This document shows, piece by piece, positions 7,311 to 59,555 of a DNA stretch of 64,000 nucleotides (position 1 is its first letter; every line of letters begins with the position of its first letter). Origin of the DNA: a virus; IMG/VR virus record IMGVR_UViG_3300027779_000019, positions 13,680 to 77,679 of that record. One strand, written 5' to 3'. The notes under the pieces are model-generated. The model saw nothing but the letters and a program-made list of their open reading frames with translations, did not search any database and was not told where the DNA came from. Made by a program: the position numbers and the translations under genes.

Positions 7311-7357
7311 TTATTTGATTGACATTTAGCCAGAAGTATGGTATGCTCTTTCTTGAC

Positions 7358-7612
7358 ATGGCGGGAACAAGCAAATCTGGAAAAACAAAAGGCGCGGGAT
7401 CGTTCGTAAGAATCTCTCTCTGCGAGTTGAACAGATGCCTCAAACCAGAAGCATCAGTTATAGTCAATCGCAGATACGTCGAAGCATTAAACATGGAAGC
7501 GTCCTCGTTCCAAGCAAACACCATCGCCTTGAAGAACGTAGTGAAGCATTCAGCAGTTGCCACTATAGACGAAAAGGAGAAGATTCAAGTAGAAGTAAAA
7601 ACTGACTGGTAA
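7358..7612 (+). CDS. hypothetical protein co-transcribed with the RuvB-like gene
   Basis: promoter TTGACA 7319 / TATGCT 7342; ATG 7358. Confidence 0.6.
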   Translation: MAGTSKSGKTKGAGSFVRISLCELNRCLKPEASVIVNRRYVEALNMEASSFQANTIALKNVVKHSAVATIDEKEKIQVEVKTDW

Positions 7613-7636: not shown

Positions 7637-8611
7637 ATGGCTACCACCACACTAATCGAAAAATTGTTCCCGAATATCGTCGGGCAGACAGCGGCAAAAG
7701 GAAAAATGCGATTCTATATCGAAGGGCATTCCGCAAGCAATATGATCCCCCACATGATGCTTGTCGCACCCAAAGGGTGCGGCAAGACCACTATGGCAGA
7801 GGCATTCGGACGGAACCTAGTTCAGAAAGGCGAGATCAAGCAGAAGCCTTGGTTGAGCATAAACTGTTCTTCGATTAAGAACTTGGAGCAATTCTTCGAC
7901 CAGATAGTAATGCCTCACTTGATGGATAAAGATATAACATTTATGATGGATGAATGTCACATGATTCCCAATGATGTTCAAAACGCGCTTCTGACGGTTC
8001 TTAACCCCAACCCATCGCATACCAATACGTTTTCTTTTGGTGAGTTCGATTGGAATGTTGATTTTAAGCGCATTTCTTTTATCTTCGCAACTACCGAATC
8101 GCAGAAGATGGCATCACCGCTAATGGACAGATGCGAGCGCATCGACTTGGAGGAATACTCTAACGAGGAACTTGCAGAAATTGTCAAACTTAATACGAAG
8201 GTTGTATTTAAGCAGAATATCCTTGACGATATATCAACTACGCTTCGCGGCAATGCGCGGGGAGCGCAGAAAATGGCAACCAACATCGACATATACTGTA
8301 AGAAGAATGTTAAGAAGGTCTTCCAAAGGAATGATTGGAAACGGTTAACGAACGCTTTGGACATTATGCCGTTGGGACTGCACCGCATGGAGATGAGGGT
8401 TCTCCGTACCCTGTCAGAGCAACCGTTCACTAGGTTGGGCAGTCTGGCGGCGAAGTTAGGGATGAACAGGACGGTCATCCAGCGCGACTTCGAGATGTTC
8501 CTTGCGAAGAATGGGCTTTTCGACGTTGATCCGCTTGGCCGACAACTGACCAAGAAGGGGCTGGAACTTCTTTCCACCTACGACAAGAACAAAGACAAGA
8601 CTACTAAATGA
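7637..8611 (+). CDS. ruvB: Holliday junction branch-migration ATPase RuvB-like
   Basis: Walker A PKGCGKTT, Walker B DECH, ATT, PLMDR and RGNAR motifs; RuvB-type C-terminal winged helix (LAAKLG...E.FL...G......GR.LT..G). Confidence 0.85.
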   Translation: MATTTLIEKLFPNIVGQTAAKGKMRFYIEGHSASNMIPHMMLVAPKGCGKTTMAEAFGRNLVQKGEIKQKPWLSINCSSIKNLEQFFDQIVMPHLMDKDITFMMDECHMIPNDVQNALLTVLNPNPSHTNTFSFGEFDWNVDFKRISFIFATTESQKMASPLMDRCERIDLEEYSNEELAEIVKLNTKVVFKQNILDDISTTLRGNARGAQKMATNIDIYCKKNVKKVFQRNDWKRLTNALDIMPLGLHRMEMRVLRTLSEQPFTRLGSLAAKLGMNRTVIQRDFEMFLAKNGLFDVDPLGRQLTKKGLELLSTYDKNKDKTTK

Positions 8612-9157: not shown

Positions 9158-9274
9158 ACAACTCATTGATTACCAAGGACTTACATAGGCCGCCCTCCTA
9201 AGTCGCTGACTACCAAGGACTTACGGCCGCCGGGTAGCCCGGGGTGCGTAAACCGTTGATGCTCAATAGTTTAC
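9158..9274. repeat. double-palindrome element 1 (plus an extra box at 9158-9184)
   Basis: 27-bp boxes at 9198-9224 and 9248-9274, consensus GTAAGTCnTTGnnnnnCAAnGACTTAC, GC-rich spacer. Confidence 0.9.
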
Positions 9275-9335
9275 GACAGCGAGAAAGTTTCATTTAGTGC
9301 TTGACTTTTAGGCAAAAGTATGAGATCATATCCTC

Positions 9336-9608
9336 ATGCGTTACATTAACAGCAACTGCACCTATACCGAAAACCACGTTGAGGGAACCTATACGTTCAC
9401 AGGGCCGTGTCGTGTCACCGGAGACGACTATAGCGTCACTATACCGGGGCATGAACTTTGGGATCTAAACCAAGGTAAGCCGATCATGTGCTTGAAATCT
9501 CTTGATGCGAGCGACAGAGAGTTCGTCTTGAGTGGAACAAGCCCCAAAGGGTGGGAGAAGCTTTTTGGTGGAGTAGAAGAGATCGCGAAGTCATTAGTCG
9601 CGGAGTAG
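9336..9608 (+). CDS. hypothetical protein (leaderless)
   Basis: ATG 6 nt after the -10 box of promoter 9301; REF..SG.SP.GW motif. Confidence 0.65.
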   Translation: MRYINSNCTYTENHVEGTYTFTGPCRVTGDDYSVTIPGHELWDLNQGKPIMCLKSLDASDREFVLSGTSPKGWEKLFGGVEEIAKSLVAE

Positions 9609-9672
9609 CCAAGCGGTAAGGCAGGAGATTGCAAATCTCTTATCGTCGGTTCGATTCCGACCTCCGCGTCCA
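9599..9672 (+). tRNA. tRNA-Cys(GCA)
   Basis: acceptor stem CGCGGAG/CTCCGCG, anticodon arm GGAGA-TTGCAAA-TCTCT, GGTTCGATTCC T-arm, U discriminator and encoded CCA. Confidence 0.93.
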
Positions 9673-9721
9673 TATTTAGTGCTTGACTTTTGAGTAAAGA
9701 TGTGATACCATATTTGAAGTT

Positions 9722-10276
9722 ATGAGGGAAAGAGAAGAGCCAAAAGGATTTATTAGCTGGGCAGACGCAGGGCCGCGTAAGGTTGTCGACGGATGTGAGG
9801 TAGCGCCGGATCGCGTGAAGGTTTACTTCAATCTTCAAAAAGACTGCCTTTCGGTAATTGATGCGGAGACTGGACTGCTATACTGTCATGCTCATCGGGT
9901 TGAGTTGCGTAATGCCAAGTTTCGGGTACAGCCAGCAGGTCGGGAGCGAGTCATTCGGGAGAAGCGTAAGAACGTCCACGCTTACATTATCGGTGACTGC
10001 CATGACATTGGTGACGTTTCCAAGGAACGTTTTCGCTTGGTTGATAATGAGTTGTTCGAGAAGTACAGCATCTGTGATTGCGGTGACAAACCATACGACT
10101 ACTGTGAGGAGTGCGTACCGGAATCAAGTGATGAGTTTCGCGGAGGGTGTTACAATCCTTATAAGTATAAGACTTTCGTAGACGATGTAGAGAAGACGCC
10201 GATCCTCAAGTCAGACAGGGTGATCGTCAGAGACAAGACGGCGATAGGGTCACATTATAATATATTTTATGTTTGA
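9722..10276 (+). CDS. conserved phage protein
   Basis: VY.NL...C.SV...F.V...GRERV.REKRKNVHA motif; own promoter at 9683. Confidence 0.7.
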   Translation: MREREEPKGFISWADAGPRKVVDGCEVAPDRVKVYFNLQKDCLSVIDAETGLLYCHAHRVELRNAKFRVQPAGRERVIREKRKNVHAYIIGDCHDIGDVSKERFRLVDNELFEKYSICDCGDKPYDYCEECVPESSDEFRGGCYNPYKYKTFVDDVEKTPILKSDRVIVRDKTAIGSHYNIFYV

Positions 10277-10622
10277 ATTAAACCTATGTTATGAATGCAA
10301 TGAGGTTATAGAGGGTCGATGGGATTCTCAAATCGGATTAGGCATCGAGACGGGCGAGTTGAAAGACACTCCTTATAAACACCTTATCTACGATAAGCAT
10401 ATCAAATGCTCTCCTAGTAGAGCGCAGAGGATCGTTCATAAGAAGTTTTCTCCCGTTATAGACGAGAGGTCGCAGTACGATTGGAGGCCGGAAGCAGACA
10501 ATACTTGGACGGACGAGATGAGAGAGAAGTACGAAAAGCTTTATACTGAAGCGTGGGTTAGTCTTCAGTTGAAATTTAACCCTACATGGAGAAACAATTA
10601 TGCAAAACACTGTAAAAACTGA
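10269..10622 (+). CDS. hypothetical protein
   Basis: overlaps its neighbours in operon-like fashion. Confidence 0.55.
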   Translation: MFELNLCYECNEVIEGRWDSQIGLGIETGELKDTPYKHLIYDKHIKCSPSRAQRIVHKKFSPVIDERSQYDWRPEADNTWTDEMREKYEKLYTEAWVSLQLKFNPTWRNNYAKHCKN

Positions 10623-10911
10623 GATCAAACCTTCCAAAGACTGGAATGGGTTTAATTTTGTGTTCTCAAATGGATGGGGACTCTCCATCCAACAGAGCGA
10701 ACATCATTACTGTAAGGTCGGCAAGACGGCAGAGGTCGCTATCTTTGACCCCGAAGGGAATTGGCTCGCTTACGACGAAAAAACCAATTCAGTCGATGTC
10801 TTGCTAAATGCAGATACTCACGTTAATGGGTGGTTGGATGCTGACGCTATTGCTAAGCTTTTTGCTATACTTTCGCAGAAAGAGGTTGACATTATAGCAG
10901 AAGTGTGTTAG
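10600..10911 (+). CDS. hypothetical phage protein
   Basis: F.NGW..SIQ....YC...AEVAI pattern. Confidence 0.6.
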   Translation: MQNTVKTEIKPSKDWNGFNFVFSNGWGLSIQQSEHHYCKVGKTAEVAIFDPEGNWLAYDEKTNSVDVLLNADTHVNGWLDADAIAKLFAILSQKEVDIIAEVC

Positions 10912-10920
10912 ACTACTTAT

Positions 10921-11350
10921 CTTCCGTTAAGGGAGGATGTCATAGTTAAGGTTATTGAAAAGGGAGTCTGGCAGGGCGGACTTAAAAGATTAGGGTAGGA
11001 ATACAATGCTAATCAACCCCTGACACTTTCTAAAAGCTCTTTGAGCTTTTTAATTGTTCTTTGATTTTGAGTTGGCGGAGTTAAATACCCCTGTGTGTTT
11101 GTTCTGACGGTGCAGACACACGCCCGCTTTACTGTTGGTGGTGCGACAGCAACTCATTTAATTTTCTCGCTCGACGGAGTGGGATCGGTGTGACGGAATA
11201 ATCCCTCCCAAAGGGGTAACGTAGCGACTGCGACAAGTACGGAGACCAATCGGTTGAGGAATCTCGTGGGTGAGTCCGAAGTAAGTAGATCTGAAACATT
11301 TGTTTTCTGGGTACTGAAAAGGTGCGGGTACACAAATACTCCCGCCACCA
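10921..11350 (+). ncRNA. candidate large structured RNA
   Basis: promoter TTGACA 10886 / TAGACT 10909, then about 430 nt rich in stems with no credible ORF. Confidence 0.45.
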
Positions 11351-11361
11351 TTTTATTTAAT

Positions 11362-11670
11362 ATGAAGGTAAGTAATTCGGAGATACTGCTTGAGTCAAAG
11401 TTGACCCATGATAAGTTACTAGAGGCATTCAGAGAAAAGAAAGTGAAAACTAAACATTTAAAGCAAAAGGCTGACAAAAAGAAAGCAGCCAAGAAGACTC
11501 GCGCAATTAAGCGAGCAGATGCAGATAAGCTGGATGCGTTGCGCAAAGACTTTACGCGTAAGATAGAATATAGTTTAGGGCACATCGTCCAAACCAATGC
11601 CAAAAACTGTGAAGCGGTATCCTTCTTAAAGAGTAAGATGAAAAAGATACGTCAGGCAATTTCAGAATAG
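11362..11670 (+). CDS. hypothetical basic protein
   Basis: ATG 11362 in the frame of track ORF 11254..11670. Confidence 0.55.
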   Translation: MKVSNSEILLESKLTHDKLLEAFREKKVKTKHLKQKADKKKAAKKTRAIKRADADKLDALRKDFTRKIEYSLGHIVQTNAKNCEAVSFLKSKMKKIRQAISE

Positions 11671-11862
11671 TATTATACTTTATGAGGCAAGAAACAAAAG
11701 AACAGCGTTGGGCCACAGACTACAAAAAGAAAATGGCAAAGATGAGCAAAAGCGTAGACCCAAAAGTGTGGGACTATATTTACGGCTCCAAATAATCCTC
11801 CTAGAGCTATTATAGTTCGCCTCCTTTCTGCGCACGAGTAGGAAGGGGGTTTTTTTTGCGCC

Positions 11863-11940
11863 CTAAAGTACTGACAGTTAAGCACTTACGGGGCGGCGGC
11901 TGCGGGCGGCGGCGTAAGTCCTTGGTACTCAGTGACTTAC
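11863..11940. repeat. double-palindrome element 2
   Basis: boxes 11863-11889 and 11914-11940; follows a terminator at about 11819-11858. Confidence 0.9.
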
Positions 11941-12002
11941 GTACGTAAAGTTTTATTCTTTTTTTGCTTGACTTTTTAGGTAAAGTGTGGCATAATACTC
12001 TC

Positions 12003-12194
12003 ATGGAAATTGAGAACGTTAAGGAGTGTGTCGAGAGCGCAATGTCGGACTTCTTTTTTGGTGAAGGCTATATTGACGGCGGCGTTGCTTACGCTATTTG
12101 CACTAGGGAAGATATGAACGGCAGGAGCCAGATGACAGAACTTCAGGAAACTATAACTGAAAGAATTATTAACTTTAACAAAGAAAAGGATTGA
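12003..12194 (+). CDS. hypothetical protein (leaderless)
   Basis: ATG 6 nt after the CATAAT of promoter 11968. Confidence 0.6.
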   Translation: MEIENVKECVESAMSDFFFGEGYIDGGVAYAICTREDMNGRSQMTELQETITERIINFNKEKD

Positions 12195-12270
12195 CATTTA
12201 AGCAAAAGTATGATAGACTATATTCTTTGAGTGAGAGAACTATATAACAAAAAACTAAACTAAAAAACAT

Positions 12271-13173
12271 ATGGCAAGAACAACTAGACCCACATCAGAC
12301 AACTACTCCTTCGGCGTACAGCACACGGCCCTCAAAGCCTCTGACGGTACACCTTCGGGATGGTTTGGAATACAGCGCACCGACAACAACAAAGTTATAG
12401 GTGTTAGCTCGGAAAAGTACGGTATCGTCAAAAACGATGACGTTATAGGAGCCGTCAAGGAGGCGTTAGGAGAGCATCAATCGACTCTTGGAGAATACGA
12501 GGAGGAAATCAGCTGCGTGCGTGATGGTTCGCGTATGTACGGAGGTTTTACCTTTAAGGACTACAAACGTGACCACAAGGACGGTGGTCAGTACGAAAAA
12601 GGCGATTACATGGGAATGAAGTTGACGGTCAATAACTCCTATGACCGCACTTGTCGGGTGTCTCTATCGGTTGGAATGCTTCGCTTGGTTTGCACCAACG
12701 GCATGACCTCGCTAGAGCAGGAACAGTCTATGACTCGCAAGCATTCTCTGCAAGTGGACATTTCTTTCATTCGTGACGCAATCTCTGGCTGCATTGAAAA
12801 GTTCGAGTCATCGGTTGACCATCTTGGTAGACTGTCAAAGGTTTCCTTGACACAAGACCAAGGCACGAACATATTGAAGAACCTTACCGATAAGAAGATT
12901 ATATCGGAAGTCGTTCGCGCTGGTGTCGCTAGTATTTGGGCGAATCCATCCTACGATCAGGACAAACCTCGAAACTTGTATACCTTGTATAACGCATCGA
13001 CGCAGTACCTCACGCATGATCCCAACCCTTCTGCTCGGCTTGAGTATTCCAGCAGGGTGGACAAGGTGTTGCTGGGCAAGTTCAGCGAAATGAGTTCGAT
13101 CCCCAGCAAGTTCAACCTGTTATCGGCCAAGCCGAAAGAAAAGAAGCAGGAACAAATTGTCGTTGCTGTCTAA
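12271..13173 (+). CDS. DUF932-family phage/plasmid protein
   Basis: R.D...V.GV.S.KY..V.N, NSYD and R.VCTNG motifs. Confidence 0.8.
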   Translation: MARTTRPTSDNYSFGVQHTALKASDGTPSGWFGIQRTDNNKVIGVSSEKYGIVKNDDVIGAVKEALGEHQSTLGEYEEEISCVRDGSRMYGGFTFKDYKRDHKDGGQYEKGDYMGMKLTVNNSYDRTCRVSLSVGMLRLVCTNGMTSLEQEQSMTRKHSLQVDISFIRDAISGCIEKFESSVDHLGRLSKVSLTQDQGTNILKNLTDKKIISEVVRAGVASIWANPSYDQDKPRNLYTLYNASTQYLTHDPNPSARLEYSSRVDKVLLGKFSEMSSIPSKFNLLSAKPKEKKQEQIVVAV

Positions 13174-13256
13174 CCCAGCAATGCCTCACGCCCCGTCGAA
13201 GGCTTAATCTTTCTCCTTCGGCGGGGTCACTTTAATATATAAAAAATAAAATATAA

Positions 13257-13508
13257 ATGAGCAAATATATAAATTCCCCAAAACGAAAATATTCCGTAAC
13301 ACACTTTGACATGAAGGCAAGGGGCAGCTTCGCCCTTGGAGATAAGCAGCTCCAAGGCCCCATCGAAATAGAGAGGGTACAAATAGCATGGCAACCCGAC
13401 GAGCAAACGAGCCACGCGCTATTATTTGAAAATCCCAATCATATAAATTTGATTCCGCTGATATTAGAAGAGGCGGGGTACGAGCTATCAGAAGATTCCG
13501 TGTTCTAA
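13257..13508 (+). CDS. hypothetical protein
   Basis: 83-aa ATG ORF whose stop lies within element 3. Confidence 0.5.
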   Translation: MSKYINSPKRKYSVTHFDMKARGSFALGDKQLQGPIEIERVQIAWQPDEQTSHALLFENPNHINLIPLILEEAGYELSEDSVF

Positions 13509-13580
13509 GTCGTTGACTATCAGGGACTTACGCGCGCCGGGCTGCCCGCGGCCGTAAACCCTTGGGCATCAATGACTTAA
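13505..13580. repeat. double-palindrome element 3
   Basis: boxes 13505-13531 and 13554-13580; spacer core CGGGCTGCCCG. Confidence 0.9.
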
Positions 13581-13684
13581 GGCCAAGAGAAAATTACAAA
13601 AAAACTATAATAGGATAATCAGAGGGCCTAAAAAGTTATTCTTTTTGCTTGACTATTAGCCGAAGCTGTGCTATACTTTCGGGA

Positions 13685-14329
13685 GTGATTGCAAAAAAGA
13701 AAATGACAATAAAACAGGCTCAAGGGTTGGTCGGTTCGTTATCGACACCATCGAAAATGCCCGGCTTTGGATACAGCACACCGGCAGAAGATTGCGTTAC
13801 AGGCTCAAAACTGGTTCAGGTAGTGAATTCTATTTGTTCGTTTTGCTATGCTAGAAAAGGCCGTTACGTTTTCCCAAACGTAATTGCAGCAATGAAAAAA
13901 CGACTTGCCGCATTGCGTCAATTGAATTGGGTGGACGTGATGACCTTCCTAATTGAAAAAAGGGAAAAGAGTGGCTTTTTTCGCTGGCACGATAGCGGAG
14001 ACGTTCAAGGCGTTTGGCATCTCGAAAAGATCGCAGAAGTTGCAAGGCGATTGCCCAACATTAAATTTTGGCTGCCGACGAGAGAGTATGGCTTTGTGCG
14101 CGAATGGATGAGCTTGGGCATCAAGCCGGACAATCTGACTATCCGCTTGTCGGCTTACATGATGGACGGCGCACCACCAGCCACGTTAGCCAAAAAGCTC
14201 GGCTTGACGACCAGCGGGGTTGTTCGTGACGGATTCAGTTGCCCAGCATCTGACCAAGGCAATGAATGCAAAGAGTGCCGCGCTTGCTGGGACGAGACGG
14301 TGGAAAATATAAACTATAAGAAGCACTAA
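13685..14329 (+). CDS. Gp88-like Cys-rich phage protein
   Basis: SKMPG, C.TG.KL...C..CYA.KGRY, FRWHDSGD, WLPTRE and terminal C..C..CW motifs. Confidence 0.75.
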   Translation: MIAKKKMTIKQAQGLVGSLSTPSKMPGFGYSTPAEDCVTGSKLVQVVNSICSFCYARKGRYVFPNVIAAMKKRLAALRQLNWVDVMTFLIEKREKSGFFRWHDSGDVQGVWHLEKIAEVARRLPNIKFWLPTREYGFVREWMSLGIKPDNLTIRLSAYMMDGAPPATLAKKLGLTTSGVVRDGFSCPASDQGNECKECRACWDETVENINYKKH

Positions 14330-14432
14330 AAGCTTGACTTTATTGGGAATTGTGATATACTCCTTTGTGAATGGAGATGCCATTACTACTGATACTAGCG
14401 GTCATTGTAACCTACCTACAACAAAAAACAGA

Positions 14433-14666
14433 ATGAGAAAACTAATGCAAAAACTAAAGCGGTTAATGAGGCCGCGCTTCACCTTGGTTTACCGTAAAAG
14501 AGACGGTGCGAGTGGAATCTACGAGATTTCCAGACCAAGAACAGACAACACCTTTGGCAACATCGGAGAGGGAGAGGATGAGGTTGGCTTTCGCGCCTAT
14601 TGTTACAATCGCGAAAACTGGCGTTCTTTCCGTCACGATGGAGTCATTTCTATGGTGAAAAATTAG
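14433..14666 (+). CDS. small WYL-like domain protein
   Basis: AYC..R..WRSFR.D motif. Confidence 0.5.
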   Translation: MRKLMQKLKRLMRPRFTLVYRKRDGASGIYEISRPRTDNTFGNIGEGEDEVGFRAYCYNRENWRSFRHDGVISMVKN

Positions 14667-14695
14667 CCTCCGGTTTACCGGAGTACGTCAAGGAA

Positions 14696-14725
14696 AAGCC
14701 CACCGGAAACGGTGGGCTTATTTCT
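14696..14725. terminator. bidirectional terminator at the convergence point
   Basis: AAGCCCACCG-GAAA-CGGTGGGCTT between convergent gene blocks. Confidence 0.75.
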
Positions 14726-14748
14726 TATAATAGATAAGGTCTTATTTT

Positions 14749-15162
14749 TTAGTTATCCGGCCGGTTGGCTTCCATGTCGTGAGCAGAGGCAACACGGTAG
14801 CCAATCTCGCTTCTTGGGGGAAGCAGAGAGAACGAAGCGTTATAGTCAATTGACTCCCAAGCCTCTTGGGCAAGTTTCGCAACGTGTGGGTATACGCCGC
14901 CTCTAATGCCTTTGAAGGCGTCACAGCTTTCATTTAGCACACGCATCAACGTGCGGGAAAAGACGGCTTGTTTCAATCGCTTGGAAGTAGACCAAAACCA
15001 AAAGAAGTTTTCGCCAATCCAATTTGGTTCATCGCAAGCGGCCGCGCCGTGATTATGCCAACCAAAAAACTCATACTTTAGAGCTTGATTGTCGCCGTTG
15101 CCCATTATACCAACGGCCCAACTAGAGCCGTTACGCTGCACAATAATATTACTGTTTTGCAT
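14749..15162 (-). CDS. hypothetical protein
   Basis: 137-aa ATG ORF overlapping the ArfA-like ORF. Confidence 0.6.
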   Translation of the reverse strand: MQNSNIIVQRNGSSWAVGIMGNGDNQALKYEFFGWHNHGAAACDEPNWIGENFFWFWSTSKRLKQAVFSRTLMRVLNESCDAFKGIRGGVYPHVAKLAQEAWESIDYNASFSLLPPRSEIGYRVASAHDMEANRPDN

Positions 15163-15274
15163 TTTTCTTTTTCCTTGAATAAGAGCCTTTGCCCTTCTCG
15201 GTTTTATGTGTTCGTGTTCCCGTATTAAAAGGAACCACCTTTCTAGGTTTAGAAATTTTCTTCTTCTCTCTCAT
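15149..15274 (-). CDS. ArfA-like ribosome-rescue peptide (41 aa)
   Basis: MREKKKISKPRKVVPFNTGTRTHKTEKGKGSYSRKKKNAKQ contains the KGKGSY.RK ArfA signature; leaderless behind promoter TTGACA 15309. Confidence 0.7.
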   Translation of the reverse strand: MREKKKISKPRKVVPFNTGTRTHKTEKGKGSYSRKKKNAKQ

Positions 15275-15418
15275 GCGTTTATAGTCTCATAATTTCGGGC
15301 AAATGTCAAGGTAAATATACAACTATTTCAAATATGTAAACACCTAAAAACGAAATAGGTTAAGAGCAAATAACTCAAATATATAAAAAAACTATAAAAG
15401 TATATTTTTTCCACAGTT

Positions 15419-15495
15419 GTAAGTCATTGACTATCAACGACTTACGTCCGGCGGGCTGCCCCCAGCCCGTAACCCATTAGTACTCAAAGGGTTAC
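15419..15495. repeat. double-palindrome element 4
   Basis: boxes 15419-15445 and 15469-15495. Confidence 0.92.
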
Positions 15496-15499
15496 ACCT

Positions 15500-15685
15500 T
15501 TAAAGTCCGCACTTATAGCAGGGCAAATACCCCGCAAATGGATCTACCCCATTCGCTTCGCCGCCCCAGCCTCCGCATTGTGGGCAATTCTCTTGCGTGT
15601 CCCGTTCTTTAAGTTCTTCCTCTTTGAACTCAGGATCTTTGCCCCTATAGGGCTTGGTGTGTCTGTGCTCTTGCTTCATGTCCAT
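15500..15685 (-). CDS. small CxxC protein
   Basis: CPQCGGWG and CYKCG pairs. Confidence 0.5.
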   Translation of the reverse strand: MDMKQEHRHTKPYRGKDPEFKEEELKERDTQENCPQCGGWGGEANGVDPFAGYLPCYKCGL

Positions 15686-15885
15686 TGCTTGCGGTCGGTT
15701 TCCTCTTCGTAGCCTGCGTGGTAGGCGTCCAGATCAGCCTTCGTCATGTCTTCCACCTTGACGCGGGGGGCATTACCGGTACCGTTCGGGTAGTAGTGGG
15801 CATCGCTGCCCCTGCCATAGTAGCGGTCAGCAGATCCCCGATCATAGGGGCTGCCGTGTTTCGTATCGTATTTTTCTGTTCGCAT
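15676..15885 (-). CDS. conserved phage protein
   Basis: HGSPYDRGSAD.YYGR...HYYP..AY.AGY motif. Confidence 0.7.
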   Translation of the reverse strand: MRTEKYDTKHGSPYDRGSADRYYGRGSDAHYYPNGTGNAPRVKVEDMTKADLDAYHAGYEEETDRKQWT

Positions 15886-15908
15886 AATTATATAAAAGGG
15901 GTTACCGG

Positions 15909-16202
15909 TCACAGCATCTCACAGCCTCCGCCGTAATCCTCATCCGTGCCCCAGCCCGCACTAGCGAGCGCATCCCCGTCCGCTTCCGCGTCCGAGTTGA
16001 AACCGTCCCAATCCTCGCCTGCGGCGTCATCGATAGACCACACCACCTCGCGAGAATTGTCGGTATGATGCTCGATAACGTCCTCGCCCACCTGATCGGC
16101 CAACCTAATGGCCGCGTTCAATGCTGTGTGATCGGCATCACCCACGTTCTGCGTGAAACTCTGCACTACACCCTCTCCATCAACAACTGAGTATTTCCTC
16201 AT
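15909..16202 (-). CDS. acidic phage protein
   Basis: DGDALASAGWGTDEDYG C-terminal motif; own promoter at 16240. Confidence 0.65.
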   Translation of the reverse strand: MRKYSVVDGEGVVQSFTQNVGDADHTALNAAIRLADQVGEDVIEHHTDNSREVVWSIDDAAGEDWDGFNSDAEADGDALASAGWGTDEDYGGGCEML

Positions 16203-16338
16203 AACAGAAAACAGTATACCACAAAATGGAGAAATGTCAATCAATAATGTCACTTTTTTAAAAAAGATATTTTAACTATTTATCGTACTTGGCATGAAAA
16301 CCCTCCTAAGGTATCGCTTTTTAGGGTAGTTGGGGTGC

Positions 16339-16415
16339 GTAAGTTACTGATTACCAAAGACTTACATTTTCGCGGGCAGCCCGCGGCCGTAAACTACTGG
16401 TAATCAAAGAGTTAG
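16339..16415. repeat. double-palindrome element 5
   Basis: boxes 16339-16365 and 16389-16415; spacer core CGGGCAGCCCG. Confidence 0.9.
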
Positions 16416-16628
16416 CCCCCCCAAGGACAAGTGAGTGAAACCTTGGGAGGGCTTGAGGAAGGTAGCCGGAGAGATGACGGCTACCAAAGTCAGCGGCAAT
16501 TATAGATTTTCTTTAGTTTTCTATTTCTTTTTAATCGCGCTTGAGTTATAAGTTCGTCGATCCTTTCGTCAACTAAACTAAAGGCAAGGATAGATTTTCC
16601 GCTTCGATTTTTTAGGTTGATCTTCATT

Positions 16629-16820
16629 TTATTGTTTTACTATTTTTATAGCTTTCGCGCACCAGCCATCATAATCGCTTTCGGTTGCGGTGACTTTGCC
16701 TTCCCAAGTTGCGCCTCGAACCTCAGCAAGCCATGACGGAGTTGGTAGAATCGCTGTATCGCCTACGCTTGCCTGTTCGTCGGTTTCGTATGTATAGTTA
16801 TTGTTTATTTTTATTTTCAT
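16629..16820 (-). CDS. hypothetical protein
   Basis: 63-aa ORF coupled to the upstream gene. Confidence 0.55.
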   Translation of the reverse strand: MKIKINNNYTYETDEQASVGDTAILPTPSWLAEVRGATWEGKVTATESDYDGWCAKAIKIVKQ

Positions 16821-17089
16821 GTAGAGTAGATTTCGCGGGGTGTCTCAAGGATTGCTTTATCAAACCAGCTTTGCGGCTGCACTTCGCATTTGACACCTTC
16901 TAGCCACCTGTTTAAATGTCGTGATGTTGTTTTGCTAAACTTTTCTTCTGTCTTATAATACTTCACGCCAACCTTGGCGGCTACGGGCGTACCGTAAGAG
17001 AAGAAAACAGTAGTACGTTTTGTCTCATCGACAAGCCTTTTGTTGAAGTGGACTTCCGTCTCGTTAGTGCTTATGTTTTTTATATACAT
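16817..17089 (-). CDS. conserved phage protein
   Basis: FSY.TPVAA...S.TTSRH.N.WL motif. Confidence 0.65.
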   Translation of the reverse strand: MYIKNISTNETEVHFNKRLVDETKRTTVFFSYGTPVAAKVGVKYYKTEEKFSKTTSRHLNRWLEGVKCEVQPQSWFDKAILETPREIYST

Positions 17090-17091
17090 GA

Positions 17092-17400
17092 TTAGAAATC
17101 TGGATCGCTTGTATGCTTGTAGTTTTTAAAAAATTCCGCTCTGGCTTGTTTCCTTAATTCTTTAAAGTAGCCATCAATCGACAAGGCAACCTCGTCCCGA
17201 GCATCACCGCTCCAAGGCATGTTTTCAATGTCACCAACAACAATGTCAACAACCTCCTTTATTGGCTGACCCCATGGGTTATCGGTATCTTTCACGAGCA
17301 GCTCCCTAACGCTCAGGTGTTCGCCCATTGGCTTGCTGCGGAAGTCGTTGCTAGCTATTTCCCAAACCTTATCTATTGCTTTTTTTATGTTAGAGTCCAT
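17092..17400 (-). CDS. hypothetical protein
   Basis: ATG 17400 overlaps the hydrolase stop (TAATG). Confidence 0.55.
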   Translation of the reverse strand: MDSNIKKAIDKVWEIASNDFRSKPMGEHLSVRELLVKDTDNPWGQPIKEVVDIVVGDIENMPWSGDARDEVALSIDGYFKELRKQARAEFFKNYKHTSDPDF

Positions 17401-17855
17401 TATAGTTTGTAAAAAACGTGTTGCCCGATAACCTTGACGGGCTTTTGACCTTTTGCCCAGTAAGGTTTCTTTTTCATCCAAGTCGCGTGGTAATGATTAG
17501 CGAAGCCAACAAAGTCACGACTTAAAAGTTTGATGTTTTTAGCCAATGCCAGCGCGTACTTCGCTTGCGGAACCTTCAACAAGTGTTCAAGATTCTTTAA
17601 CTTTTTACCGTTCCAACAACTAAATTGGTAGGGCTTGAGACAGATTTCGGTTGCTGTTCTCTTTCTCTCGAATGCGCGTTGAGCAATGACAGCAGCCACC
17701 GCGTACATTCCTCCCTGTCCTTCGCCACGGGCTTCTGCCAATATAGTGATAGCAATGATTTTGGTTTCTCTGGTGAGTTTTGCATTTGTGTGAGTGTGCG
17801 CGTAAACAGTAAGAGCAAAGGCGGCGACTAGTATAGTTGTTATTATTTTTTTCAT
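17400..17855 (-). CDS. SleB-like cell wall hydrolase (Hydrolase_2)
   Basis: signal peptide, EARGE..GM.AVA.VI, QFSCWN, HYHA, PYWA and IG.H.FY motifs. Confidence 0.88.
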   Translation of the reverse strand: MKKIITTILVAAFALTVYAHTHTNAKLTRETKIIAITILAEARGEGQGGMYAVAAVIAQRAFERKRTATEICLKPYQFSCWNGKKLKNLEHLLKVPQAKYALALAKNIKLLSRDFVGFANHYHATWMKKKPYWAKGQKPVKVIGQHVFYKL

Positions 17856-17856
17856 T

Positions 17857-18099
17857 TTAAGCTAAAAGGGTGACAGTTGCGTTAGAGTTAAGAGCGTGGA
17901 CAGTCGGTTCTTTTGGTTCGTCATCGAATCCGCAATGATTGCCAAGCGCGTGTTTTATTATAGCCCAAAGACTTGGGACTGGCCCGAACTGCTCAAGTGT
18001 TTTGTCGCCTCGCTTAACGGTAAGAGTCCAAGCGACTTTGCCGCTTTCTTCGCATTCGAAGATGTCTACTGTTTTTGTCGGATGGTTTATATCTCTCAT
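17857..18099 (-). CDS. hypothetical protein (MRD-start family)
   Basis: promoter TTGACT 18138; predicted mRNA start AGTTATGAGAGAT. Confidence 0.6.
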   Translation of the reverse strand: MRDINHPTKTVDIFECEESGKVAWTLTVKRGDKTLEQFGPVPSLWAIIKHALGNHCGFDDEPKEPTVHALNSNATVTLLA

Positions 18100-18134
18100 A
18101 ACTTGTAATATCGTATCAGATTTTAGGGCAAAAG

Positions 18135-18431
18135 TCAAGCACTATCTTTGCAAATTTCACATTCGCATTCTTGTGCTTTTATAGCTTCTTCGTTCCAGTC
18201 ATCGCAAAATGTGGTAAGTTCCTTAACTTCCTTTTTCGTTTTCAGTCCACGCTTGAATTGTTCCCAAGTGGGGCGTTGCGCTTCGGGAATTGCTTCCCAG
18301 CCTTTCATCAATTCGGCACGACGAGCCTGTTCCTCCGCCAACCACGGCAGAACGCTATTTGCTGACATATCGCCACCCTTTTCCGCTCTCCTGCGGATTC
18401 CTTCTGTTATTGCTCTTGAATTATCTCTCAT
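18135..18431 (-). CDS. hypothetical protein (MRD-start family)
   Basis: promoter TTGCTA/TATACT; predicted mRNA start AGTTATGAGAGAT. Confidence 0.6.
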   Translation of the reverse strand: MRDNSRAITEGIRRRAEKGGDMSANSVLPWLAEEQARRAELMKGWEAIPEAQRPTWEQFKRGLKTKKEVKELTTFCDDWNEEAIKAQECECEICKDSA

Positions 18432-18486
18432 AACTGGGAATAGTATAACACAATCTCGCAAAATAGCAAGCTTTAATGTCACTTTT

Positions 18487-18714
18487 TTAAGCCTCGATTC
18501 CCGCTTTGTCTTCGATCCATTCGAGATCTTCGCTATTCTCGATTTCGGTTAGCCTGTTCTGGACGTCGGCGAGTTTCTCTTCCCAATGCTCTATGCGGAT
18601 TTGAATCGCTTCCTTCCCAATGAGGTTAGTCTGCGCTAATATTTGCAACGCTCCACGCACTTCGGCGATAGCAATGCCTTCGTTCCTCAAACTCTTCTGT
18701 GTCGTATCTCTCAT
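18487..18714 (-). CDS. hypothetical protein (MRD-start family)
   Basis: promoter TTGACT 18752; predicted mRNA start AGTTATGAGAGAT. Confidence 0.6.
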   Translation of the reverse strand: MRDTTQKSLRNEGIAIAEVRGALQILAQTNLIGKEAIQIRIEHWEEKLADVQNRLTEIENSEDLEWIEDKAGIEA

Positions 18715-18864
18715 AACTGCAAAGAGCATAGCACAATCAGCCAAAAAGTCAAGAGAAAAGAATCACTTTTTTAACAAATATGAATAAAAAAAAGAACAAA
18801 TATTAGGACAAATATGCTTGACAAGTTCATCAAAAACCGAAAAAAATGACTTTTTAAAACTACC

Positions 18865-18941
18865 GTAAGTTATTGACTATCAAGGGTTTACGGCGGGCGG
18901 GCAGCCCGAGGCCCGTAAGTCCTTGGCGGGCAGAGGGTTAG
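18865..18941. repeat. double-palindrome element 6
   Basis: boxes 18865-18891 and 18915-18941. Confidence 0.9.
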
Positions 18942-18996
18942 CACCATCATCGGCGCGCTGTGTCTCAAGCGAAACGATGATGGTTTACGCTAGAGA

Positions 18997-19275
18997 CTAT
19001 ATTGAGTCACCAGCGGGCGTTCGCCTATTCGCGATCCTGTTGAGTTCCGCATTGCATTTACTCATTCGTTTCCGTAGGTTCTGCACCTCCAGTAACGTCT
19101 TGCGCTCAAGCATTTCTTCAGTCTTCATTTCGCTGAAGTACTCAATCATGAAGCGGAGCGTTTTGGTTTTGGTAGTGAACAGCTCATTGCTGAGCTTATC
19201 TAGGCTTTGCTTAACTTCGGGGGATACCCGAAGGTTGATGGCGACGCTTTGGTTGTTTTTCGTTATGTAGTTCAT
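18997..19275 (-). CDS. putative ribbon-helix-helix DNA-binding protein
   Basis: INLRVSPEVKQSLDKLS...TKT.LR..I pattern followed by a coiled coil. Confidence 0.5.
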   Translation of the reverse strand: MNYITKNNQSVAINLRVSPEVKQSLDKLSNELFTTKTKTLRFMIEYFSEMKTEEMLERKTLLEVQNLRKRMSKCNAELNRIANRRTPAGDSI

Positions 19276-19405
19276 TATAAGTTTAAAGTTAGAGCCGCAG
19301 CCGTTAATGCTGCACTGCCCGTTATGCATAGCCACGCATTCAGTTCATTCAATCCGAGATCATTAATTAACCATTTCATTTTATTTATCATAATTCTTTT
19401 TATAT

Positions 19406-19630
19406 CTAGTTGGGCCATACTTGCTCGATGTCCCAGCCATCACGGTCGTTACGCTTACGGCACTCGATGCGAACATCTAATACAGTTGTTTTCCTTATAA
19501 CACCAGCGAAACCGATTGCGTCATTGAACGCCCTATGGTCAGGCTCACCCTTCACCATAGGGAAGGCTTTGAAGTTGATGGTGCCGTCTGTCTTCCAGAA
19601 CACCGTAAACGTTTTGTTTGTATCTCTCAT
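19406..19630 (-). CDS. hypothetical protein (MRD start)
   Basis: begins ATGAGAGAT like the 17.8-18.7 kb genes. Confidence 0.55.
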   Translation of the reverse strand: MRDTNKTFTVFWKTDGTINFKAFPMVKGEPDHRAFNDAIGFAGVIRKTTVLDVRIECRKRNDRDGWDIEQVWPN

Positions 19631-19642
19631 TATATTAAATCC

Positions 19643-19843
19643 TTATTCGCACTCGTGGCACTGGTAGTTTTCCAAGCCGTGATCCCATTGGCCAACTTCT
19701 TCTAGGCTGATCACTACTTCCGCACCGCATCCGCAGCACACAACCTCATGTCCATCCACGGTGTTGTTGTCGTCGTTCCGATCCATCTCGTTGTTCATTT
19801 CGTTATTCATCTTATTCATTTCGTTGCTCTTTCTCTCACTCAC
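19643..19843 (-). CDS. small Cys-rich protein
   Basis: promoter TTGACT 19879; GTGAGTGAGAGA start; two CxxC-like pairs. Confidence 0.5.
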   Translation of the reverse strand: MSERKSNEMNKMNNEMNNEMDRNDDNNTVDGHEVVCCGCGAEVVISLEEVGQWDHGLENYQCHECE

Positions 19844-19882
19844 TTGTTATATCGTATCACATTTAAGGTTGAAAGTCAACAC

Positions 19883-20071
19883 TTATTTTGGATTATTTCC
19901 ACAATATCCAGCCAGTTGATTGGCTTGGTGCTTGGGGTCATTGTTCACCGTGTAGGTGTTACCGTTCAAGGTGAAGGTGTCACGCTTGGCCTCACGGCGG
20001 CGACGTTGCTCCAAGTGTCTGCGGATCTCTGATATTGTCATTTGATTGTTCATTGTCTTTCTCTCACTCAC
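19883..20071 (-). CDS. hypothetical protein
   Basis: promoter TTGACT 20107; GTGAGTGAGAGA at the predicted transcript start. Confidence 0.5.
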   Translation of the reverse strand: MSERKTMNNQMTISEIRRHLEQRRRREAKRDTFTLNGNTYTVNNDPKHQANQLAGYCGNNPK

Positions 20072-20157
20072 TGGGTATAGTCTAACACGATAGGCCCGAA
20101 AAGTCAAGCGGTTTCTTTGTTTTATTTCATTTTTATTTCGTGTGATTCTTTACCTAG

Positions 20158-20173
20158 TTGGCACGATTATTGC
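20158..20173 (+). promoter_or_regulatory. sigma54 (-24/-12) consensus site
   Basis: TTGGCACGATTATTGC matches TGGCACG-N4-TTGC. Confidence 0.6.
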
Positions 20174-20196
20174 CTAGTGATGATTGTATAACTGTC

Positions 20197-20272
20197 GTAA
20201 GTCATTGACTATTAGGTACTTACGCCTCGGGGCCAGCCCGCCGACGTAAGTCCTTGGTGCTCAGTGGGTTAC
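20197..20272. repeat. double-palindrome element 7 (centre of the divergent hub)
   Basis: boxes 20197-20223 and 20246-20272. Confidence 0.9.
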
Positions 20273-20295: not shown

Positions 20296-20311
20296 GCAGG
20301 TATCGTGCCAA
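20296..20311 (-). promoter_or_regulatory. sigma54 (-24/-12) consensus-like site
   Basis: TTGGCACGATACCTGC on the minus strand, GG-N10-GC. Confidence 0.55.
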
Positions 20312-20401
20312 GTCATTATAATACGACACGAAAAGAAAGTTATTTTTTTTACATTTAGGGGTTGACTTTTGAGGTAAGATGTGATATCATATTCCTAGTG
20401 A

Positions 20402-20587
20402 GTGAGGGGAGACCCTCCAACAGAAAGACAGATTATGGAAGATAAGAAGATTAAGACAGTTAAGGTCAAAGGGCCTTGGGTAGATGGAGTGCAGACAGTC
20501 AAGGAGATCAGCCTAGACGAGTGGACAAGCTATACGCCACTAAACAGGCGAGTACGGGGAGAATGGTTCCGAGTAGTTAAGTGGTAA
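20402..20587 (+). CDS. hypothetical protein
   Basis: promoter TTGACT 20362 / TATCAT; start uncertain (GTG 20402 or ATG 20435). Confidence 0.5.
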   Translation: MRGDPPTERQIMEDKKIKTVKVKGPWVDGVQTVKEISLDEWTSYTPLNRRVRGEWFRVVKW

Positions 20588-26829: not shown

Positions 26830-27810
26830 CTACCATTGATGATTCCAGTACCATCCCCATGAATCTCTTCTGCCGTATCGAACATAAGAGTCTCGCGCCT
26901 CTTCTGGTCCCGCATTAGTTTTGCGCATTTGTCTTGATAGCCCATGAACCCAAGGAAACCATGTATATTTCTGGGTCTTGAAGTTTTCTATTTTGGTGGT
27001 GGACCTATCTTTTAACCATTTTACATCTACGCTGCCATATGCCCTTCTTATCCCGTACTTGAAATTAGAACCGTCAATGTAATATTTACCTTGCGCAGTT
27101 TTTGTCCGCTCGTCCAGCCATCTTTTGGTTTCGACATGACCATCCGCGAAAGCTAGCGCTGTTCCATCAATGTGGTACTTACCCGGAACGTCCATGTCGT
27201 ATACTTTATGCGTAGGTCCTCCTTCATTCATTACTACCCGAAAGCAGCCAGCATTTATAAATTCAAATGGCATTTCTATAAAAGTAAAAATATTAGAAGG
27301 TTTTTCTATGTCGGCTTGTTTATGGTATATTTTCCATTCTTTATCATTTTCTACTGGCCAGCCAGCCCACCCTCCTACGTGGATATTCATGCTATAGCTC
27401 CTATGACGCGGGAAGATCTGCCTTAACTCACCGGCCTTGTTTGTTATTCTGAGCATGTCCTTGTCTGCTGGGCATTTAAATACTCCAACAGATTTGCCCA
27501 CGTAAGGAAAAAGGGGAGTACTTTCTAGAAATTGTGCTTTATTTAGATATCGAGAAAGATTTAAACTTCCCGGTGCCCATGTATACTTCGAACATTTTTC
27601 ATACTTCCAAGAACTTGAATATAATATTTTGTCACCGTGGTCATCACTAAATATTGTGTGAGCCATTTGTAATTGTTTCTGATTATTTATGCAGGCTACT
27701 CTTTGTGCGATTGATTTCGCTTTGTTGATCGCAGGGAGAAGAAGGGCAACTAAGAGCGCAATGATCCCAATAACAACGAGCAACTCGACTAAAGTAAATC
27801 CTTTTTTCAT
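26830..27810 (-). CDS. prepilin-type N-methylation / H-X9-DG domain protein
   Basis: [15 protein letters not shown]-terminus, C.NN.KQ, F.CP.D, RSYSMN, H.DG..LAFADGH. Confidence 0.9.
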
Positions 27811-28757
27811 CAATAAGGGTTCCAAGTTGGATGGCTACCCCAACTGTCATTCCAATACCAACCCCACGAAGCGGACACCTTACCATCTATAGTGCGGTGA
27901 TTCCCGTCCCTATTGTATCTACCTATACCTCCCATAACTCCATACCATCTATGATTGTTGGGGTCTGGGACAATTGCTCTTGCCCTTAGCCATGCAAGAT
28001 CGCGATTATTTGGACTTACTATTTTATCCGTATTAGTCGTTGGATCTGTCGCATCAGATGATATATTTATTGTGTCTTGTTCAAGCCATCGTTTAAATTC
28101 GACGTGCGCGTCCACGAAAGAAACAACAGAGCCGTTGTTGTGATAAACCCCGGGCCAGTCTTGTGAGAAAAAGCTCTCACCACCTTTAAGTGTTGGCGCT
28201 ACTCTAAAGTTTCCAGCATTAATAGATTGAGGTGGCATTTCAATAAAAGTAAATAACAGGCTCGAATTATTTACATCGCCATATTCGTGATGAACTTTGT
28301 ACTGGCTATCTGATAACCAAGGCCACCCCGACCAACCACCGACAAAGAGATTTACGCTATAGGAACGTGGCCTATTTATAGTCTTCGCATTAACCGTAAC
28401 AGTGGATCTATCTCCGGGGCAATGATATATGCCCATACCCGCATAAGGCTTTAAGGGAGAAAAGAAGAGAGGCCTATCGGTTTGACCCCATGTACCGTTA
28501 CCACTCATACTGTCAGCAACCCATGCCCACATACCGGTCGGCTCTCCAGCCCAAGCTGAGGCGTAAGGGAACCTATTTTCGTGATCCCCTGCGAACTCCG
28601 AGTAAGCGAGATTAAGTTGGCGTTGGTTATTTATGCACGCGGCTCGCCACCCTGTCTGTTTAGCGGAACTTAATGAAGGGAGTAAAAGGGCCGCTAATAT
28701 CGCAATGATGGCTATCACCACCAGAAGCTCAATTAAAGTAAACCCTTTTCCTTTCAT
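27810..28757 (-). CDS. prepilin-type N-methylation / H-X9-DG domain protein
   Basis: [42 protein letters not shown]....FVDAH. Confidence 0.9.
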
Positions 28758-30805: not shown

Positions 30806-31192
30806 ATGAAAATATATTGTCCAAAATGCGGATCAGGATCCAATTACAACATGACTAAGCCCAAGTTCTGTCAGGGGTGCGGCAAGTCCTTTTTAAACGT
30901 AGAGTCAAATAGCGCAGTAAAGAAACAAAAAACAGTAACAAAGATAGAGGCACAGATAGCTCCTAAAATCGAGAAAGAAACTATCCCTAAAAATATAAAT
31001 AAATTAGAATTCGACACTGTTGGAACGCTACAAGTAAAAGGATCTGCGCTAGGTCAATTAGTGGGAACGTCTGAAGATACCGCAGTCTTCGGGGATAGGC
31101 AACAATCAACGGAACCCAACTTTAGCAGGGAGGAGTTTCTGGAGCAGTTCAAAAAAGAAGCTGGAACTAGCCGTCCTCCAACAGATGGCTAA
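30806..31192 (+). CDS. zinc-ribbon protein
   Basis: YCPKCG...PKFCQGCG. Confidence 0.65.
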   Translation: MKIYCPKCGSGSNYNMTKPKFCQGCGKSFLNVESNSAVKKQKTVTKIEAQIAPKIEKETIPKNINKLEFDTVGTLQVKGSALGQLVGTSEDTAVFGDRQQSTEPNFSREEFLEQFKKEAGTSRPPTDG

Positions 31193-53334: not shown

Positions 53335-53335
53335 A

Positions 53336-59546: not shown

Positions 59547-59555
59547 GGAAAATAA

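Follow-up and report, generated by a model that had tools for sequence, protein, structure and literature searches.

What function is served by a doubly palindromic sequence that recurs between the early genes of a marine phage? The question is raised by the IMG/VR virus record IMGVR_UViG_3300027779_000019, of which a stretch of 64,000 nucleotides (positions 13,680 to 77,679, hereafter the window) carries, between window positions 9,158 and 20,272, seven elements (E1 to E7) of ~77 bp, each made of two 27-bp boxes around a GC spacer. A description drawn from the letters of the window (hereafter the sequence-only reading) had proposed that these elements partition the early region into gene cassettes, acting either as recombination sites of an integron-like array or as a centromere/operator array. 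We give a probability of about one half to the reading that the element is a protein-bound, DNA-bending boundary module, whose binder is probably a host protein of the IHF type, and which would tune early promoters and double as homology for the shuffling of cassettes.

Inverted box pairs and gene content at their sites

The boxes were searched with the pattern of the sequence-only reading at up to three mismatches, which gave 10 matches in the window and none in 100 dinucleotide shuffles of it, and with a position-weight matrix trained iteratively on related DNA, which returned exactly 15 boxes, i.e., seven inverted pairs and a single box. The matrix recovered the pairs as they had been described, with start-to-start distances of 49-51 bp; the strand of best score was plus for the first box and minus for the second in 7/7 pairs, hence the inverted arrangement. 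The spacers between paired boxes are indeed GC-rich, and the GGGC(A/T)GCCC core attributed to them is present in 6/7. Boxes are absent from the remaining 43 kb of the window, where none had been noticed before, and from the 13.7 kb lying upstream within the 77.7-kb record.

The source record is rated 49% complete by CheckV, and its 12-kb element region has no near relative among GenBank phages (megablast), while blastn against GenBank with one element as query returned chance coding matches only. The stretch is present in marine and seawater DNA metagenome runs of 18 studies, with no RNA run among those listed; host labels of metagenome-assembled genomes (MAGs) were mutually inconsistent and were not used for host inference. 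Viral contigs, on the other hand, hold the box in quantity: one degenerate pattern matches >118 of them (~1 expected by chance), and the weight matrix, applied to the listed loci and the window, detected 1,004 boxes from 119 sources, 860 of them forming 430 pairs. Among these listed matches the favoured pair spacings are 48/50 bp and 41/42 bp, and the spacers of the 430 pairs have a GC content of 79%.

For comparison of whole genomes we used a set of five, namely this record and four relatives of 140-178 kb rated 100% complete by CheckV. Each of the five has one array only, which spans 10-20 kb with its 7-11 elements and is always placed between a RuvB-like gene and a PhoH-sigma-terminase module, and the box consensus is unchanged although the mean identity of core proteins is at most 52%. 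When relatives were selected on the capsid protein only, 7/16 were box-bearing, the sole complete one among them; in two of the box-negative ones (G012 and G018) the contig stops at the expected array position, and in another, G011, the RuvB-PhoH interval is complete and has no boxes. In 185,579 bacterial and archaeal species genomes paired elements were found only on short, pair-dense (phage-like) MAG contigs, chromosomal matches being mostly single boxes. The elements of the window are the local instance of a large, clade-wide and apparently undescribed repeat family. In three bacterial/MAG contigs (L143, L178 and L238) the box pairs have AT-rich instead of GC-rich spacers, which suggests that the box is used beyond this phage clade.

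At the elements these phages differ in their early genes. The RuvB-like, 90-aa protein, gp82-like, DUF932 and GP88-like genes vary in order and orientation among relatives, each flanked by elements, and in locus pairs of 72-99.5% nucleotide identity 12.9% of the internal alignment ends fall within a box, as compared to 3.8% of random positions. Where L049 has one element only, locus L048 has an element, a promoter, a Shine-Dalgarno sequence, an open reading frame (ORF) of ~50 codons and a further element; L018 carries this cassette too, and L006 lacks it. In a second case, the succession element, promoter, ~110-codon ORF and element of L014 is replaced in L054 by one element, which is chimeric: its left box and spacer are those of the first copy, its right arm and flank those of the second, and the junction maps to the spacer/left arm of box B. 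A block swap at elements distinguishes L034 from L064. With respect to L121, in-place inversion has affected the window cassettes at 15.5-16.25 kb and ~17.1-17.9 kb, the strand-switch points being E4 and E7, and several relatives carry the DUF932 cassette inverted. Cassettes have their own sigma70 promoters, and both orientations occur. The partition into cassettes is thus borne out, since the gene content and orientation of relatives change exactly at the elements, and the synteny breakpoints that the sequence-only reading had asked for were found there as indels with a chimeric element and as in-place inversions. An element is almost identical to its reverse complement, so that deletion and inversion are both possible between any two copies.

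Box sequence, base pairing and helical phase

The conservation of the box concerns its sequence and not its folding. Among 859 unique boxes, Watson-Crick pairing between the arms equals the expectation for independent arms at every position (e.g., 0.46 observed vs. 0.47 expected at positions 7-21, and 0.56 vs. 0.51 at positions 5-23), and the complementarity of the two boxes of an element is 17.8/27 vs. 18.5 for boxes permuted within the locus. In light of the lack of covariation of arms or of paired boxes, base pairing is not selected, and, as it is the half-site sequence rather than a hairpin that is conserved, a protein-binding site on duplex DNA is to be expected. The self-hairpin of the box and the long hairpin between box 1 and box 2 were both discarded on these grounds. 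The hairpin character claimed for the elements accordingly does not hold for the boxes, and with it goes the supposed resemblance to integron attC sites, in which structure is conserved instead of sequence.

The consensus of the box is GTAAGTCGTTGAYTATCAASGACTTAC, with the layout TAA-N4-TTGA-YTA-TCAA-N4-TTA, the centre TTGAYTATCAA and a dyad axis through base 14, so that 12-bp arms surround 3 bp (or 11-bp arms 5 bp). Positions 14-26 read TATCAA-N4-TTA, and the opposite strand mirrors them as (A/G)ATCAA...; the box thus reads as a symmetrised IHF consensus, with WATCAR-N4-TTR on each strand. The information content follows the same division, with 1.44 and 1.31 bits per position at WATCAA/TTR vs. 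0.70 at N4, and the exact WATCAR-N4-TTR occurs in the right half of 446 of the 859 unique boxes (52%) and in the left half of 203. The IHF site H' of phage lambda, ttgctTATCAAtttgTTG (PMC2709558), agrees with box positions 9-26 at 13/14 specified positions, its core TTGCTTATCAA being close to the TTGAYTATCAA of the box. The two kinks that IHF introduces are separated by 9 bp; WATCAR lies between them and TTR in the flank (10.1101/382655). In the box, the TT and AA steps are set exactly 9 bp apart around the dyad by the invariant T10 and A18. The exact kink steps within H' are those of the 1IHF structure.

The elements also keep a fixed relation to promoters. Distances were taken from the element edge to the -35 of the nearest outward sigma70-like promoter and submitted to a Rayleigh scan over periods of 8-13 bp, in which the periodicity peaked at exactly 10.5 bp (R 0.44, n = 104; after crude dereplication R 0.41, n = 91, p about 3e-7). 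The observed R was reached in 0 of 2,000 jittered sets, and most decoy motifs fell short of it too. The favoured distances are 5-6, 15-16, 27-29, 37-39 and 46-49 bp, continuing to 120 bp, and the seven distances of the window fit the same phase (R 0.84, p 0.007); outward sigma70 promoters are moreover enriched within 50 bp of element edges. In the window, the promoter said to lie 27-113 bp downstream of every element was found, with an extended -10, at 26-112 bp at six of them and has no adjacent counterpart at E4, which sits at a strand-switch point with convergent gene ends on both sides. A helix face kept over 5-120 bp would be natural where a bend, or a protein bound to the element, has to be directed at RNA polymerase, and it is not expected of a pure recombination site. 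Of the centromere/operator array first suggested, the evidence favours the operator-like half, a dispersed set of protein-binding sites. As the intrinsic terminator at 11819-11858 ends just ahead of E2, the element occupies the untranscribed gap between units.

The early promoters form a tight family, TTGACTTTT...TGTGATATCAT (window 9301-9340, 12191-12273 and 20362-20410), and several have a start codon or a GTGAGTGAG(A/G)G tag a few bases from the predicted transcript start, which suggests early transcripts with very short or absent leaders. Motifs of the sigma54 type, TTGGCACG-N4-TTGC, face E7 from both sides. In relatives the inward TGGCACG is enriched 20-40 bp from element edges (~50 of 820 flanks vs. 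~1 per bin elsewhere), sometimes as the 3' arm of a CGTGCCAA...TTGGCACG hairpin. A sigma54 reading was set aside, the motif being restricted in the window to the surroundings of E7, and inward promoters at elements are left unaccounted for by the model that we favour.

The box-less G011 offers a comparison for the spacer. Its early region (L364, C1:28500-42500) contains 16 near-identical early promoters, TTGACAAA...TGTGGTATATTATA, each following an A-tract, and 9 of them are also preceded, at 18 or about 27 bp from the -35, by a palindrome of the GGGCCCGGGCCC type. Since G011 retains the palindrome without boxes, the GC palindrome seems to be older and the boxes a dispensable addition. Palindrome, A-tract and promoter may together constitute a unit similar to the promoter-early stem-loops (PeSLs) of T4-type phages, repeats between which recombination has been proposed to shuffle genes (Arbiol et al., 2010, PMC2839356; Comeau et al., 2014, PMC4122927), and may represent the ancestral form of the spacer.

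Candidate binders, mechanism and rivals

Searches for a reader of the box within the phage were negative. No HU/IHF protein (PF00216) scored above the cut-off in the four complete relatives, so that a phage-encoded one was discarded as binder and any IHF/HU would have to come from the host. About 60 ORFs in the first 31 kb of the window contain no Pfam DNA-binding domain at E<=0.01, the ParB-like and RHH proteins named as candidate binders in the sequence-only reading have no Pfam support, and the 450-aa ORF 1110-2462 has no Pfam or PDB match. The GP88-like protein, with a weak TrfB/KorA match (E 0.94), was rejected: isolates with GP88 homologues have no boxes, and the box-bearing G003 lacks both the GP88- and the gp82-like genes. 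The RuvB-like protein, its small neighbour (ORF 7319-7612) and DUF932 were rejected as box-specific binders, all three being present in the box-less G011. No gene in or beside the array tracks the presence of boxes. With a box unchanged over diverged phages and no phage gene that follows it, a conserved host protein is the most economical reader. Two string matches were also dismissed, a half-box-like one beside terminators in Stenotrophomonas phage DLP6 (PMC5349666), whose genome has no full box, and one in the literature on ICEclc, which is merely a primer.

Searches for recombinases and ParB in the five genomes were negative too: tyrosine recombinase (PF00589), serine recombinase, Y1 transposase (RAYT/Y1, PF01797) and the ParB N-terminal domain (PF02195) were each found in 0/5, with 6-14 of 14 control genomes positive by family, and all 14 for tyrosine recombinase. 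That no recombinase is visible, as first stated for the window, extends therefore to the record and the four complete relatives for the tyrosine, serine and Y1 families. The clade core includes RecA-like and RuvB-like proteins and PD-(D/E)XK and ERCC4-type nucleases, and this, together with the lack of a recombinase, makes homologous exchange the favoured route.

We propose that each element acts as a duplex DNA module under protein, in which two symmetrised IHF-type boxes, with predicted kinks at the TT/AA steps 9 bp apart, would flank a stiff GC-rich palindrome. The likeliest binder would be a highly conserved IHF/HU-type bending protein of the host, a phage protein being the main alternative. 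Lying in the untranscribed gap between early units and held on a fixed helix face with respect to the next sigma70 promoter, the module could shape through its bends the upstream DNA around RNA polymerase and insulate neighbouring units. Present 7-11 times per 10-20 kb and near-palindromic, it could also provide portable homology for the deletion, insertion and inversion of promoter+ORF units, an exchange probably carried out by the RecA-like, RuvB-like and nuclease machinery of the phage and not by a dedicated site-specific recombinase. The identity of the binder, bending upon binding, the effect on transcription and the recombination pathway are what we infer in this scheme. A wider version of it, which we regard as doubtful, would have the marine phage clade put one host architectural protein to two uses, as phase-locked enhancers/insulators and as recombinase-free cassette joints; equally tentative is the corollary that such joints move promoter+ORF units within and between phages, as an 'integron without an integrase'.

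Several points weigh against the boundary module. Breakpoints favour intergenic DNA in any case. The split or excised junctions that had been suggested as a check at the boxes were not encountered, as excision or inversion joints were absent from metagenome contigs (4 marine runs), a weak negative given that contigs drop rare forms; the contigs span the elements in the reference order, and their box-level joints have short sides or foreign spacers and derive from related phages. The close relative G011 runs the same early region, with GC palindrome, A-tract and promoter, without boxes, which are hence dispensable. As for the phasing, one decoy hexamer gave R 0.35, and related copies are not fully independent, so the statistics may be inflated; a recognisable outward promoter stands at only 13-25% of element flanks, many promoters of the window lack an element, and E4 lacks a promoter. 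The IHF match is a resemblance, with a chance probability estimated at ~1e-3 over registers. Natural IHF sites are asymmetric, and we know of no rationale for a symmetric site with a heterodimer. The N4 positions hold information as well (T6/A22 about 1.1 bits), and weak conservation extends to G1/C27, from which it follows that another protein could read the box. That the host has IHF is an assumption. Finally, spacings of 41/42 and 48/50 bp give unlike relative bend directions, a point against one fixed architecture.

The boxes might instead be operators for a phage dimer or tetramer (a repressor, an insulator or an early-to-middle switch), bound by one dimer per box, cooperatively across the spacer, and contacting or looping to RNA polymerase. 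This possibility, somewhat unlikely in our judgement, would suit a palindromic motif with independent half-site degeneracy, paired boxes at discrete spacings, their helical phasing with promoters, and an array limited to the host-sigma70 early region of phages with two sigma factors of their own; the spacer core, moreover, differs from genome to genome (GGGCWGCCC here, GGGWCCC or CCCCCGGGGG in others), as it might if it co-evolved with a partner. It is difficult to reconcile with ORFs devoid of DNA-binding domains and array-adjacent genes that do not co-vary with the boxes, nor would one expect the 27-bp consensus to stay the same across such divergent core proteins, and a distance to the -35 varying over 5-120 bp is unusual for a repressor. 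A dispersed centromere or partition site of a plasmid-prophage (N15 sopC-like or KorB OB-like) is hardly credible: several palindromic sites do lie near promoters in one region, but a ParB domain is lacking in all 5 genomes, neither an integrase nor any other indication of a plasmid lifestyle is present, the box measures 27 bp and not 13-16 bp, and one relative has a linear genome, about 178 kb long and ending in direct terminal repeats, as is typical of lytic phages.

That the boxes are crossover sites, integron- or invertase-like and served by a host enzyme (e.g., XerCD) or a novel phage recombinase, is improbable. The indels and in-place inversions located exactly at elements, the chimeric element left behind and the L054 junction at the spacer/left arm of box B are what such sites would leave, and a 27-bp palindrome with 12-bp arms has the size of serine-recombinase sites; its odd length is nevertheless unfit for a 2-bp staggered serine cut. 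The tyrosine-recombinase geometry of the sequence-only reading is not that of the box either, since dif, lox and FRT core sites have 11-13-bp arms around a 6-8-bp overlap, whereas the 12-bp arms of the box enclose 3 bp, too short a centre for these enzymes. No tyrosine or serine recombinase or Y1 transposase was found in the four complete genomes and the record, no junction contigs in the metagenome data, and the 10.5-bp phasing would be unexpected; homologous recombination by the phage on 27-77 bp of identity would be enough, as has been proposed for PeSLs (PMC2839356, PMC4122927). A folded nucleic acid, be it an RNA acting as terminator, 3' stabiliser or RNase III site, or a single-stranded DNA/cruciform hairpin of a REPIN- or attC-like mobile palindrome, appears very improbable. 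The whole element is an inverted repeat, the spacer alone has an excess of centred dyad symmetry (0.51 vs. 0.36 in shuffles) and a fold energy slightly lower than shuffles, E3 overlaps a gene end, and a related GC palindrome precedes promoters in G011. The absence of compensatory variation within or between boxes, however, largely refutes folding for the boxes; Rfam (E-value mode) returned nothing at the elements, which often follow an intrinsic terminator and precede a promoter, their hairpins have no following T-run, Y1 transposase was not found, and paired elements are not spread across bacterial chromosomes.

Known systems, neighbouring features and significance

IHF sites are known upstream of phage early promoters, such as lambda pL and Mu Pe. 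The boxes share with them the pattern of conserved and free positions, the TT/AA steps 9 bp apart, the location upstream of early promoters and the dependence on helix face. They differ in carrying the consensus on both strands, where known sites consist of consensus plus A-tract, and in forming pairs 41-50 bp apart around a GC palindrome, 7-11 per genome. Dispersed operators such as the stoperators of mycobacteriophage L5, the KorB OB sites of RK2 and the sopC repeats of N15 are also many intergenic copies of one (here putative) protein-binding motif near promoters, but they are 13-16 bp long and have a known element-encoded binder, whereas the motif here has 27 bp, is doubled and has no detectable element-encoded binder.

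The PeSLs are close in organisation. In both systems the repeats are short and conserved; they bound early genes that are small and mostly orphan, within a hyperplastic region, occur together with strong sigma70 promoters and stem-loops, coincide with the breakpoints of indels and replacements between relatives, and leave each cassette its own promoter. A PeSL, however, is itself promoter and terminator, while here a separate double palindrome stands between terminator and promoter, of which only the GC palindrome resembles a stem-loop, lacking the T-run. The elements are, in addition, conserved to the nucleotide over phages with 30-50% identical core proteins, similar to the IHF consensus and helically phased with the promoter, and they belong to a clade with DnaB/PolIII-type replication, two sigma factors and an SPbeta/c-st-like terminase. 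Recombination between PeSLs gives mini-circles; for the elements, the contigs of the 4 marine runs contain only box-box joints that derive from related phages.

Among bacterial repeats, the BIME-1 (RIB/RIP) and REP/REPIN sequences of E. coli are extragenic composites of GC palindromes and an IHF-type site (PMC3333891). They share with the elements the repetition between transcription units and the inverted-pair architecture, in the reverse arrangement: two IHF-like boxes flank one GC palindrome here, and two REPs flank one IHF site there. Moreover, the elements show no hairpin covariation, no RAYT/Y1 transposase accompanies them in the five genomes, and they are confined to one phage region of 10-20 kb instead of hundreds of copies chromosome-wide. 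Integron attC sites also bound cassettes with imperfect inverted repeats, with gain and loss exactly at the repeats. They differ from the elements, where no IntI-type recombinase was found, the sequence and not the fold is conserved and the repeats are phased with promoters; integron cassettes are promoterless, share one orientation and a common Pc, while those described here are invertible and have promoters of their own.

The coordinates of the elements and of the features around them are collected in Table 1. The full-length RuvB homologue borders the array in G002 and G004 as well, and its presence in the box-less G011 indicates that it is not box-dependent; with the small conserved ORF 7319-7612 (+) it forms a conserved pair, and no RuvA is recognisable. 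The late half of the window codes for terminase, portal and capsid, and the terminase of the clade is SPbeta/c-st-like. Relatives encode DnaB, primase, a PolIII-type polymerase, a RecA-like protein, ThyX and PhoH, together with PD-(D/E)XK and ERCC4-type nucleases and two sigma70-family factors. The ERCC4-type nuclease gene lies at window 32979-33920. The two sigma70-family factors of the clade core, with the Sigma70_r2 domain, are represented by window 31185-31877 (+) and L257:18840-19436 (-), one of the genes being directly upstream of the ERCC4-type nuclease and terminase genes. As the clade thus encodes late transcription factors of its own, the array region is the early island, served by host sigma70, of a large phage.

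Table 1. Boxes, elements and neighbouring features in the window
Feature	Position	Strand	Remarks
RuvB homologue, full-length	7637-8611	+	Residues 7-320 aligned to RuvB 3-314; upstream of array
Single extra box	9158-9184		40 bp ahead of E1; bottom strand has exact WATCAR-N4-TTR
E1	9198-9274		Box 9198-9224, GC spacer, inverted box 9248-9274
Sigma70-like promoter, extended -10	9301-9329	+	26 bp past E1
Intrinsic terminator	11819-11858	+	13-pair stem and T8; ends just ahead of E2
E2	11863-11940		Weak box 11863-11889, GC spacer, box 11914-11940; 12 bp past intrinsic terminator
Sigma70-like promoter	11968-11996	+	27 bp past E2
E3	13505-13580		Boxes 13505-13531, 13554-13580; box 1 overlaps stop of ORF 13257-13508
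Sigma70-like promoter	13649-13677	+	68 bp past E3; ahead of GP88-like gene
E4	15419-15495		Boxes 15419-15445 (perfect pattern match), 15469-15495
Sigma70-like promoter, leftward	16213-16240	-	98 bp from E5
E5	16339-16415		Boxes 16339-16365, 16389-16415
Sigma70-like promoter, leftward	18725-18752	-	112 bp from E6
E6	18865-18941		Boxes 18865-18891, 18915-18941
Sigma70-like promoter, leftward	20079-20107	-	89 bp from E7
Sigma54-like -24/-12 motif	20159-20173	+	TGGCACG-N4-TTGC; faces E7
E7	20197-20272		Boxes 20197-20223, 20246-20272; centre of divergent promoter region
Mirror sigma54-like motif	20296-20310	-	Faces E7 from opposite side
Sigma70-like promoter, rightward	20362-20390	+	89 bp from E7

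Elsewhere in the window, the first cassette carries a tRNA-Cys(GCA) gene at 9599-9672 (+), between two early promoters, and an early cassette contains a manA-RNA-like match at 11167-11355 (+), which spans the full model and, at 38.1 bits (E 6e-7), does not reach the gathering score of 55.2. Two neighbouring proteins at 26830-28757 (-) have a prepilin-type N-terminal methylation motif, one with a weak DUF1559 match, a pair that may give a hint, on weak evidence, to the host. Three giant ORFs (2,785, 1,810 and >1,481 aa) follow the head genes at 44977-63998 (+).

How phages acquire and rearrange their fast-evolving early genes, such as those for host takeover and anti-defence, is poorly understood outside the T4-type phages. 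In a large group of uncultured marine phages the element offers a precise and searchable landmark of cassette boundaries, and connects the exchange of cassettes with an architectural site coupled to promoters. By means of the box profile, early-gene islands can be located and orphan cassettes delimited in viromes. Were host IHF the binder, the box would be a natural, high-information symmetric IHF site, and a nucleoid protein of the host would organise the early transcription units of the phage.

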